Positions 30,517-32,259 of a stretch of DNA of 50,070 bases are shown here, piece after piece; position 1 is the first letter of the stretch; every line of letters starts with the position of its first letter. The DNA comes from Anaerolineae bacterium (lineage in GTDB: Bacteria; Chloroflexota; Anaerolineae; UBA1429). Location: contig DAOTVR010000059.1 of NCBI GenBank assembly GCA_034436315.1, positions 1 to 50,070 of the forward strand, read 5' to 3'. The notes beneath the pieces are model-generated. The model was not told the origin of the DNA and made no database searches. It worked only from the letters and a program-made list of their open reading frames with translations. Made by a program: the position numbers and the translations under genes.

Positions 30517-32259
30517 TTAGAAACGGCTCACGCAGGCCGAGTGGCAGGCGCTATGGCAGGCGCTATGGCACACGCAGGCCGAATGACAGGCGCTGTGACA
30601 GGCATCGTGTACACAGGCACTATGGCAAGCGTCGTGTACGCAGGCCGAATGACATGCGCTATGGCAGGCCGAATGGCAGGCGTCGTAGCCGGCCTCGCCG
30701 GGCGCGCTTTTTTCGCCGCCCAAGATGCGGCTCACTCCCTGCTCAATGCGCTGTACCGTGCCGCTGATGGTCTGCTCCACGCCGCGCGTCAGCTCATCGG
30801 CCAAACGCTCCAGGGGCGCGACGGCCTCCTGAGCGGTGCGCACCAAGGGACCGGGCGCTCCGGCGGCCGCGGGAGCCACCCGCCGGCGGTCGCTCAAGAT
30901 GATCCAGGGCAGGTAGTTTGGCATCGGCGCTTGGGGTGGCCGGGTGCGCCAATCTCGCTCATATTCTTCCCAGGCGGTATCAATCCGTCGCCGGTAGGTC
31001 TCCCGCGTGGCTGCCGGATCTGCATTCCACATCTTGGGCTGGACGCTGGCGGCTACTGCAGCGAGGATCGCGGGAATCTTGGTCTTGTCGAGCGTCCCAT
31101 CCTCTTGGATGGCATCCAGCAGGGCCTTTTCATAACTGGCGAGCTGTGCATCGGGCTTGAGCACCTCCATCTGCAAGGGGACGCGATTGACCACGTTGAT
31201 CACACCGCGCTGCTCAAGGGCCAGGACGATAAGGGTGATCGTCTTGGTTGAATCGCCCAGGTAGAAGGCCGCCTCAATGGCGTTCAGGTCGGGCACCACG
31301 CCGGGGGTTTGGAAAGTCTCTATGTCTATCTCGGGTGGCTCATAGGTTGGCTTGGGCTTGCGCGGGCGCGTGGCCAAGACCGTCAGGATCAGGACGGCGA
31401 GGGTGATGGGGATGCCAAAACAGAAGGCTCCTGTGCGCAGCGAACGCCATTCTGAGCTGGTAAAGCCCATGAATCCGGCCGGCTCTGTGGGAGCCGGTGT
31501 GGGCTGTTTCAAGGGGATGGCGGTCTCTTTTGTCGTGGTGATGAACTCACCAGGAATGTAGAACTTGGGCACCATCGTCTGGTTGGCCCGAAGGTTGTCC
31601 TTGCGAACGAAGAGGGAGAGCCAAACCTTGCCCGTCTGTTCATCAGGGGTAGGGAAGTAGACCCAACGATCGAAACGGCTCGTATCTTCTACCAGTAGCC
31701 CGGTGGCGTCAACGATCTCGTCTGTGACCTCCTCGGGCTGGGTGATGTTTGCGGGCAATTCAATGGGCAATACGTAGCGAATCTCTTGACGCACGATGGG
31801 CAGAGCCCACTGGAAAGGTGCCCAGCCGATGGCGCGATAGGGTTTCCCATTGACCGTCGTCTCATCAAAGACGGAGCTATCTACCGTGTAACGCACCAGG
31901 ATCTCGTACTGTCCGCCGTTGCGGGTGGGCTTTTCAAAGTTGACCTGATAGGTCTCTGGCCCGCCTTGCAGGGTCACCGTAAAGACCCCATCGGGGCCTT
32001 TGCCGCTCGCGGAGACGATGGTATGCTCGCGGGGGAAGGGACCTAGCGCGCTGATCTTGCTGCGACCGCTCTCCAGCTCGGTGAAGGTTAAGGTATAGCG
32101 CACGTCTAGGCGCCCATCGTTGAGCACGACCACGTAGGCATCGACCTTATCTATCCTAACGGGGTCGGCCGCTGAGGCAACCAGGGGCAGTATGCCCCAG
32201 GTTACAGCCACGACGGCGATAACCAGAAGCGAGATCCTTACAATGCGATGCATGGTCAT
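30517..32259 (-). CDS. DUF2207-like type-I membrane protein with C-terminal (C-H-S-A)n CXXX-repeat tail
   Basis: ATG at 32259 overlaps the upstream stop (ATGA) and follows GGGAGGG. Signal peptide (LPLVASA/AD), ~250-aa ectodomain starting [26 protein letters not shown], one TM (aa ~277-297) followed by RPRKPKP and YEPP, then a ~280-aa C-terminal region ending in the Cys/His repeat. Confidence 0.75.
   Translation of the reverse strand: [580 protein letters not shown]
30520..30678 (-). repeat. Coding tandem periodicity (12-nt / 4-codon units) encoding [54 protein letters not shown]
   Basis: Direct translation of the minus strand. The units use synonymous alternatives: Cys TGC/TGT, Ser TCG/AGC/AGT, His CAC/CAT, Ala GCC/GCT/GCA. 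Confidence 0.9.

Follow-up and report, generated by a model that had tools for sequence, protein, structure and literature searches.

The stretch of DNA considered here (positions 1 to 50,070 of contig DAOTVR010000059.1 from assembly GCA_034436315.1, an Anaerolineae bacterium of the Chloroflexota; 50,070 nucleotides (nt), hereafter the window) contains, on its minus strand, a gene for a membrane protein whose last 54 residues form a Cys- and His-rich repeat, followed by a gene for a radical SAM/SPASM enzyme that begins 12 nt after the stop codon of the first gene and has AGGA in the intervening spacer. This analysis concerns the repeat (the tail), the protein that carries it (the carrier) and a proposed role of the tail as a substrate of the enzyme. 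The features of the two genes are as follows.

30517..32259 (−), tail-bearing type I membrane protein of ~580 amino acids (aa), with its start placed from homologue N-termini
32170..32259 (−), predicted signal peptide, residues 1-30, with a putative A-S-A/A cleavage-type site (hydropathy and an AlphaFold2 helix at 3-28)
31456..32169 (−), predicted extracytoplasmic part, residues 31-268 (AlphaFold2 model, Foldseek)
31372..31455 (−), predicted single transmembrane (TM) helix, residues 269-296, then T-RPRKPKP at 297-304 (hydropathy, AlphaFold2, charge count)
31027..31347 (−), juxtamembrane winged-helix-like domain, residues 305-411 (AlphaFold2, profile match)
30682..31026 (−), helices and a linker of low conservation, residues 412-526 (AlphaFold2, segment conservation)
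30520..30681 (−), C-terminal tail, residues 527-580, of the form (A)C-(H-x-A-C)n with the end ACVSRF (pattern matches and conservation)
29080..30504 (−), enzyme of 474 aa with PqqD-like RRE, radical SAM and SPASM parts (Pfam, motifs)
30235..30405 (−), PqqD/RRE domain, enzyme residues 34-90 (PF05402, 31.1 bits, cut-off 23.4)
30091..30114 (−), CX3CX2C motif CQNRCTFC of the radical SAM cluster, enzyme residues 131-138
29221..29469 (−), SPASM region of the enzyme (PF13186, 23.1 bits, cut-off 21.5)

The tail is built of about 13 units that hold 13 Cys and 11 His, so the initial annotation of this DNA, which counted about 12, was fair, and the span of 30520-30687 given there consists of Y-D plus the 54-residue array. 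The tail opens with three ACHS units and closes with ACVSRF ahead of a TAA stop codon (30517-30519), and its ligand-like residues are spaced as H(i)/C(i+3) and C(i)/C(i+4); outside the tail, a single Cys is found in 523 aa of the carrier. The array had been described as a period-4 repeat of C-H-S-A, and its periodicity is evident, but the array does not repeat freely with a period of four: H-x-A-C is the better notation for the functional unit, the array is nearly fixed in length in Chloroflexi, and the ‘ACVHD’ units retain H-D-A-C with a Val inserted before it.

As had been noted, the codons for the repeated residues are mixed, with Cys encoded by TGC (9) and TGT (4), His by CAT (7) and CAC (4), Ala by GCC (10), GCA (1) and GCT (1), and Ser by TCG (4), AGC (5) and AGT (1), the last drawn from both Ser codon families, which lie at least two positions apart. 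No more than two of the ACHS units share the same DNA sequence, and Tandem Repeats Finder (TRF) reports just a degraded periodicity (periods of 12, 24 and 27 nt, 66-89% matches). The back-translated ACHSAC pattern GCNTGYCAYWSNGCNTGY has eight matches in the window, all inside 30532-30681, and none in 100 dinucleotide-preserving shuffles. An open reading frame (ORF) of 236 aa on the plus strand (30541-31251, start MAGAMAGAMAHAGRM) was rejected as a gene and is an antisense shadow of the repeat and the carrier gene.

Comparison of Chloroflexi tails over 55 positions (54 tail residues plus the stop codon) revealed that the closest orthologue (L006, from an uncultured Anaerolineales) is identical to the window at 55/55 positions while 29 codons differ, all of them synonymously; the other Chloroflexi tails are identical at 50-54 of the 55 positions, with 20-34 synonymous codon differences. 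Because the peptide is the same while 29 codons have changed, with 0 non-synonymous differences, purifying selection acts on the tail peptide, as the initial annotation had argued from codon usage when it dismissed recent slippage. The tail is also the most conserved part of the carrier, with 87-100% identity among Chloroflexi orthologues, against 48-79% for the winged-helix-like domain, 34-69% for the ectodomain, 18-65% for the linker and 14-43% for the TM helix, so that it is far from the hypervariable sequence that would have spoken for a functionless appendage. An initial homology search had already returned at least 17 relatives from Anaerolineae and Chloroflexi metagenomes, including full-length proteins that share 45-47% identity with the carrier and have a nearly identical tail. 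Even the irregular units are kept, since ‘ACV-CHS’ is found as AC[VDNH]-CHS in many species and a sister clade has ACVHD-ACHS at this place. From these alignments, the Chloroflexi tail appears to be a module of near-fixed length with conserved irregularities, which varies by one ACHS unit more or fewer and does not expand freely. In one homologue with 40% identity (L004, 9200-9720), the called protein P0014 ends out of frame and an intact tail is present in another frame, which reflects either an assembly frameshift or a pseudogene.

The mechanical ORF of the carrier begins at GTG 32490, within the upstream WecG-family glycosyltransferase gene. Since homologues begin at the shorter start, where ATG 32259 overlaps the stop codon of the WecG-family gene as ATGA, ATG 32259 is probably the true start; an alternative, with the Shine-Dalgarno-like sequence GGGAGGGA upstream, is ATG 32253. 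An exact look-up of the protein with both candidate starts gave no match, so the deposited gene call probably has another start.

An AlphaFold2 model built with 15 homologues predicts a β-sandwich in the ectodomain (residues ~35-236, pLDDT about 90) whose fold is similar to that of the N-terminal, non-catalytic domain of M1 aminopeptidases (Foldseek E about 1e-7 over ~230 aligned columns) and to one chain of the yeast oligosaccharyltransferase complex, a resemblance that tells little about function. On the other side of the TM helix, the model places a winged-helix-like unit at residues 325-411, followed by long helices, and this domain is the best conserved segment of the protein body across all tail classes. 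A fold search of the cytoplasmic domain model against the PDB gave no significant match (best Vps74/GOLPH3, E = 0.5). A moderately conserved amphipathic helix lies directly before the tail, within residues 412-526, and is a candidate recognition (‘leader-like’) segment. By sequence, the carrier matched nothing in the PDB and no Pfam model at E ≤ 0.01. Scans against NCBIfam and Pfam covered the carrier and enzyme of the window, four other ACHS classes, and relatives with other tails (the (CA)n and HDACV types described below); in these scans the carrier fell below all cut-offs, and neither carrier nor enzyme met a curated family that assigns a chemistry.

The initial annotation also described a signal peptide, one TM helix followed by RPRKPKP, and a C-terminal region of ~280 aa exposed to the cytoplasm. 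With the start at ATG 32259, hydropathy shows two hydrophobic segments, one N-terminal and of signal type and one a central helix (278-296) followed by TRPRKPKP, and the region after the TM helix is 284 aa long (297-580), in agreement with that description. Beyond the TM helix no hydrophobic 19-mer reaches a Kyte-Doolittle value of 1.6, and four Lys or Arg residues follow it. Among 88 family members, the mean number of Lys plus Arg in 15 residues is 3.76 after the TM helix and 1.76 before it, with more after than before in 71 of them, and the layout of the AlphaFold2 model agrees with that from hydropathy. The signal peptide, single TM helix and positive charges after it predict an outside-TM-inside layout in which the last 284 residues, tail included, would be cytoplasmic, so the location proposed earlier is supported at the level of prediction, by hydropathy, model layout and charge bias. 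The partner enzyme has no hydrophobic segment and should therefore be cytoplasmic as well.

To place the tail in a wider context, one genome per species was scanned with a back-translated pattern, which yielded at least 120 stretches, with the motif in frame in at least 105. In each of the 105 loci listed, the in-frame tail forms the very C-terminal end of a long ORF, which in most cases measures about 500-950 aa and at most 1,172 aa. Hosts include Chloroflexota (Anaerolineae), Spirochaetota, Planctomycetota, Myxococcota, Acidobacteriota, Gemmatimonadota, Gammaproteobacteria, Desulfobacterota (Desulfobulbus alkaliphilus DSM 24258), Clostridia, Omnitrophota and Thorarchaeota. The commonest ending among the matches listed is ACVSGG[AS][HR], and others are ACVS-x-F (the type of the window), ACVSSCAG-x-F (Myxococcota) and ACVSSGH. 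Even without its tail, the window protein retains its similarity to these proteins, mostly over the juxtamembrane domain and a portion of the ectodomain, so proteins with ACHS tails constitute one family. Across 78 distinct tails, 627 of the 673 spacers between Cys residues (93%) end in H-x-A; within the 598 three-residue spacers, the first position is H in 578 (Y in 11, V in 6, F in 3), the second is variable (S, D, N, G, E and others) and the third is A in 588, counts which are biased towards HSA by a search pattern that fixes two spacers per tail. The number of units differs between clades, from 8 to 13 Cys. In one locus (L064, 4703-6214), an ACHS repeat is joined to a Gly-rich ...GGW end, presumably of the kind found in DUF2207 proteins.

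The link between tail and enzyme is broad. Of the 105 listed loci, 81 have an enzyme homologue (about 300-870 bits) immediately downstream in the same orientation and five more have one nearby, so the enzyme is linked in at least 86; nine loci have no downstream sequence, and ten show no enzyme, four of these being Thorarchaeota loci that lack upstream sequence. The order of tail gene and enzyme is the same in L001, L002, L004 and L005 despite different upstream genes. Such tight linkage across phyla supports the earlier proposal that the tail is within reach of a radical SAM enzyme. In two Thorarchaeota loci (L009 and L119) the enzyme gene is divergent and upstream instead of downstream, and one of the ectodomains has a weak CARDB-like match.

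A search of 1.84 billion cluster representatives with a profile built from the protein body produced 489 matches at E ≤ 0.001, of which 57 long ones were read. Eighteen of these have ACH[SD]-type tails, 17 end in ...CACACACAGCACACAGGGR, five have CACACVSCACACACVSCACACAGGGGF-like ends, three have other Cys-rich ends (two with HDACV/HSACV repeats), and 14 have no Cys tail, either because they are truncated or because zinc ribbons form their ends. For example, P0216, P0226, P0230 and others end in ...SSCACACACAGCACACAGGGR or CACACVSCACACACVSCACACAGGGGF. One gene with such a (CA)n tail (L126, 5001-6707) is followed directly by a gene for a PqqD-radical SAM-SPASM protein (6808-8181) that shares 36% identity with the window enzyme over its full length, and a radical SAM gene also follows a gene of the HDACV type (L128). 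The (CA)n tails thus look like a sister system without His, and the theme that appears to be shared is a periodic Cys after a small residue, usually Ala, together with a dedicated enzyme, with His specific to one branch. Because the (CA)n relatives have no His, it is Cys, and not a Cys/His pair, that is universal. The initial annotation asked whether tail length would vary in four-residue steps and whether Cys, His or both would be invariant; Chloroflexi tails differ by one ACHS unit more or fewer, and of the two residues only Cys is universal. Two relatives (P0016 and P0140) have the same ectodomain and TM helix, with zinc-ribbon modules in place of the tail at the cytoplasmic end.

The enzyme itself has the features of RRE-dependent radical SAM/SPASM maturases, namely the cluster motif, a SPASM region, a PqqD domain and an adjacent candidate substrate. 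Its Radical_SAM domain scores 106.9 bits (PF04055, cut-off 29.5), and nine Cys lie in the SPASM region (346, 360, 362, 378, 415, 418, 424, 425 and 428), including G-x4-C and C-x2-C-x5-C-x3-C arrangements, a set that fits two auxiliary 4Fe-4S clusters. Homologues are found in more than 120 clusters at 65-89% identity, all with generic names only, and most of them contain the PqqD domain.

Two further genes follow the enzyme in the cassette.

27825..29012 (−), coiled-coil protein of 395 aa, third cassette gene (19 loci, in tail classes that end in F)
27296..27787 (−), protein of 163 aa with N-terminal TM helices plus a zinc ribbon at the C-terminus, fourth cassette gene (14 loci)

The order of the 395-aa and 163-aa genes after the enzyme is kept in Chloroflexi, Myxococcota and Sumerlaeota loci, and neither protein reaches the cut-off of a Pfam or NCBIfam family. 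In the ACVSGGAH class, the enzyme is followed in 48 loci by a different conserved gene (for example, L017 2357-3535, L023 2062-3156 and L100 852-1886), whose product is an unrelated multi-TM protein of about 310 aa that has a soluble domain at its C-terminus and matches no Pfam family. Directly after the window cassette lies a gene for an InhA-like (M6) metallopeptidase with a MAM domain and the motif HEFQH (25286-27295, minus strand), and L014, L106 and L113 have one at the same position. Elsewhere in the window are a selenocysteine synthase gene (SelA, 23978-25348, plus strand; PF03841, 475 bits), so the host presumably makes selenoproteins, and a run of genes on the minus strand (34127-39086) for a GHMP kinase, a ChsH2/DUF35-type OB-fold zinc-ribbon protein, a thiolase, a KAS-III/HMG-CoA-synthase-like protein and HMG-CoA reductase, which looks like a mevalonate pathway set. 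A known defence system was considered and rejected, as PADLOC gives only generic viperin-like radical SAM and SMC-like coiled-coil matches.

Because the enzyme has an RRE domain, is broadly linked to the tail and changes with tail type, and because the H, A and C of the tail are extremely conserved, we lean towards the proposal that the tail is a protein-embedded substrate of the adjoining radical SAM enzyme and that the product is probably a metal- or redox-active element. According to this proposal, the enzyme, which has a fused PqqD-type peptide-recognition domain, would dock on the C-terminal region of the carrier, and 5′-deoxyadenosyl radicals would modify the 8-13 H-x-A-C units one by one in the cytoplasm. 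The likeliest target would be the invariant Cys, which could form intrachain thioether links or be oxidized to a thiooxazole, as SbtM does on Gly-Cys; an alternative product would be a cyclophane between His-C2 and Ala-Cβ, as HaaB makes on H-A-A. In either case, the end product would be a rigid Cys/His-rich, probably metal- or redox-active element that is still attached to the membrane protein. A Cys-centred reaction is favoured because the (CA)n relatives share the Cys and not the His. The cyclophane is still viable for the His branch because H and A are invariant there and Tyr or Phe occasionally replaces His, and it is disfavoured as a chemistry for the whole superfamily because the (CA)n relatives are without an aromatic residue. 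It is also conceivable, if unlikely, that every H-x-A-C unit is converted and the tail becomes a ladder of His-flanked, modified Cys residues (thiooxazoles or thioethers) which acts as a multi-metal or redox ‘wire’ on a receptor-like protein. Were this so, the system would parallel the bufferin and TIGR04222-MNIO systems while being independent of oxygen and embedded in a protein, and in many bacterial phyla and in Asgard archaea it would link an extracellular domain with the metal or redox state of the cytoplasm.

Several points weigh against a substrate role. Gene adjacency alone is no proof of a substrate relation, and a membrane protein of ~580 aa is an unusual substrate for RRE-dependent enzymes. 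The tail genes of L018, L062 and L032 have no enzyme in the flanking sequence examined, the spacer counts have the pattern bias described above, and the AlphaFold2 model renders the tail as a low-confidence helix (pLDDT below 45). In addition, the enzyme reaches the cut-off of no NCBIfam family (AhbD 130 bits of 500, ACGX system 98.6 of 400, StsB 96.5 of 625, PqqE 93 of 381, with further scores of 104.3 of 500 for HxsC4, 79 of 267.9 for HxsC and 86.5 for MftC), and a sequence search of the PDB returned only weak, generic radical SAM matches. As the enzyme is not close to any characterised maturase, its chemistry is not assignable by homology.

It is improbable, in our judgement, that the tail is instead an unmodified chelator of Zn, Cu(I), Ni or Fe-S clusters, similar to metallochaperones or metallothioneins, with an enzyme that acts elsewhere or that receives or donates clusters. 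Thirteen Cys and eleven His in 54 residues, at spacings that suit one face of a helix, would make a good chelator, and the metallothionein-like C-x-C spacing of the (CA)n relatives, the zinc ribbons at the ends of P0016 and P0140 and in the 163-aa cassette protein, and an extreme conservation that is compatible with a defined metal site all point in the same direction. Simple chelation, however, leaves unexplained an Ala before Cys that is as invariant as the His (588/598), and Tyr or Phe at the His position in 14 spacers (YSA, YEG and FEG) would remove a ligand; nor would a mere metal-binding tail call for an enzyme that carries a peptide-binding PqqD/RRE domain, is linked to it across phyla and changes with tail type. 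Metal binding may be complementary to modification, which could create or tune the ligands.

A carrier that serves as a giant leader, from which the modified tail is cut off and released as a small peptide or cofactor precursor, as in the case of pyrroloquinoline quinone (PQQ) or mycofactocin, is quite doubtful. PqqE and MftC are among the generic matches of the enzyme, the modified region would be strictly C-terminal with a conserved end (ACVS-x-F or ACVSGG-x-H/R), and the InhA-like metallopeptidase gene after the cassette in the window, L014, L106 and L113 could supply the cut. Yet this peptidase is probably secreted, having a hydrophobic, signal-peptide-like start, whereas the tail is predicted to be cytoplasmic; no peptidase is conserved across the family, and the neighbouring genes that are conserved encode membrane or coiled-coil proteins; the cassette shows no exporter; and a disposable leader would have no need of the conserved ectodomain and winged-helix-like domain. 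The proposal that the tail is a low-complexity product of replication slippage with no specific function can draw on the TRF periods and on the range of 8 to 13 Cys between clades, and it is contradicted by the mixed synonymous codons (which include both Ser families), by the 29 synonymous and 0 non-synonymous differences from L006, and by a tail that is the most conserved segment and is C-terminal in many phyla, which together leave it with next to no probability.

A close architectural parallel is with the TIGR04222 (‘near_uncomplex’) membrane proteins, whose Cys-bearing low-complexity tails are proposed MNIO substrates and are predicted to be periplasmic (PMC12452194). Both systems combine a membrane protein, a juxtamembrane domain, a Cys-punctuated C-terminal tail and an adjacent gene for a peptide-modifying enzyme, and carrier residues ~286-407 align with profile positions 5-118 of 229 of TIGR04222, at 24.2 bits (25.3 bits for the Myxococcota relative L034), below the cut-off of 43. 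In contrast, the partner here is a radical SAM/SPASM enzyme and not an oxygen-dependent MNIO, and the carrier has a signal peptide, a large β-sandwich ectodomain and a strict H-x-A-C tail that is not Gly/Ser-rich and is predicted to be cytoplasmic. There is a similar likeness to proteins of the DUF2207 group (PF09972/PF20990) in the succession of signal peptide, ectodomain, TM helix, cytoplasmic part and low-complexity C-terminus. Some homologues are annotated as DUF2207 and P0010 and P0016 carry PF09972, L021 matches PF20990 weakly (18.6 bits, cut-off 33), and the window protein has no Pfam match.

In Haft-type systems such as ACGX and His-Xaa-Ser, a repeat peptide is paired with a radical SAM/SPASM enzyme; the tail and its enzyme would work in a similar way, and the enzyme falls below all of their cut-offs. 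The partner of the TIGR04340 enzyme is an ACGX-repeat peptide. Like that peptide, the tail has a tetrapeptide repeat that opens with Ala-Cys and is encoded next to a radical SAM/SPASM enzyme, but the repeat is A-C-H-S and not A-C-G-X, it forms the end of a membrane protein of ~580 aa and not a short peptide, and the TIGR04340 cut-off of 400 is missed by the window enzyme (98.6 bits) and its relatives (59-96 bits). The His-Xaa-Ser system (HxsA/HxsB/HxsC) differs in that HxsC is below its cut-off and that Ser directly follows His in the C-H-S-A repeat.

For the chemistry, SbtM, which is a radical SAM/SPASM enzyme, forms a thio(seleno)oxazole from a Cys or Sec that follows Gly (PMC9204691), and in bufferins, MNIO enzymes install Cu-binding thiooxazoles (PMC12452194). 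The tail shares with these systems a Cys after a small residue as the putative modification site and a metal ligand as the possible product, and the enzyme is of the same class as SbtM (SPASM, three clusters); thiooxazole formation on the tail is put forward as a hypothesis. The SbtM family (TIGR04082) is not among the 25 best families of the window enzyme, and its cut-off of 350 is far above the 62.8 and 52.9 bits reached by the enzymes of L126 and L128. Triceptide (three-residue cyclophane) synthases, which like the window enzyme are radical SAM enzymes and which modify peptides, recognise an Ω1-X2-X3 motif, and HaaB, for example, joins His-C2 to Ala-Cβ as a cyclophane on H-A-A (PMC11499958). 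The tail units contain such an aromatic-X-X motif, in the form of aromatic-X-Ala (H-S/D/N-A) with a variable middle position and an occasional Tyr or Phe, but they differ from triceptides in the invariant Cys after each motif, which triceptides do not need, and in their (CA)n relatives without an aromatic residue. Sactipeptides and ranthipeptides also have Cys-rich substrates, enzymes with an RRE and radical SAM/SPASM domains, and thioethers made from Cys, and a C-x3-C spacing is found in some sactipeptides such as thuricin CD. The corresponding families are below their cut-offs (StsB 96.5 of 625 for the window enzyme, PapB 91.6 of 340 for that of Thorarchaeota L009, AlbA 58.7-74.6 of 850 for relatives), the matches of the enzyme to SkfB and CteB (5wgg) in the PDB search are weak, and the proposed substrate here is no small secreted peptide and offers no distinct acceptor segment free of Cys.

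In the literature searched, there was no paper with such repeat strings in a relevant context and none that combined DUF2207 with radical SAM, and neither carrier nor enzyme is covered by a curated family or by a paper open to search. RRE-containing radical SAM/SPASM enzymes are known mainly for small secreted peptides and cofactors, while the apparent substrate here is the end of a full-size membrane protein, in a pairing that is widespread in at least 105 species-representative genomes of many bacterial phyla and Asgard archaea. It therefore gives a substrate that is defined, repetitive and simple to assay for finding new radical SAM chemistry on Cys, His or Ala, a test of whether modification of whole proteins in the manner of peptides that are synthesised on ribosomes and then modified post-translationally (‘RiPP-like’) is common, and a lead to the function of DUF2207 and TIGR04222-like membrane proteins with odd C-terminal tails. 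What sets this system apart from those that resemble it is the large type I membrane protein as proposed substrate, the H-x-A-C repeat, the predicted cytoplasmic position of the tail and the oxygen-independent partner.

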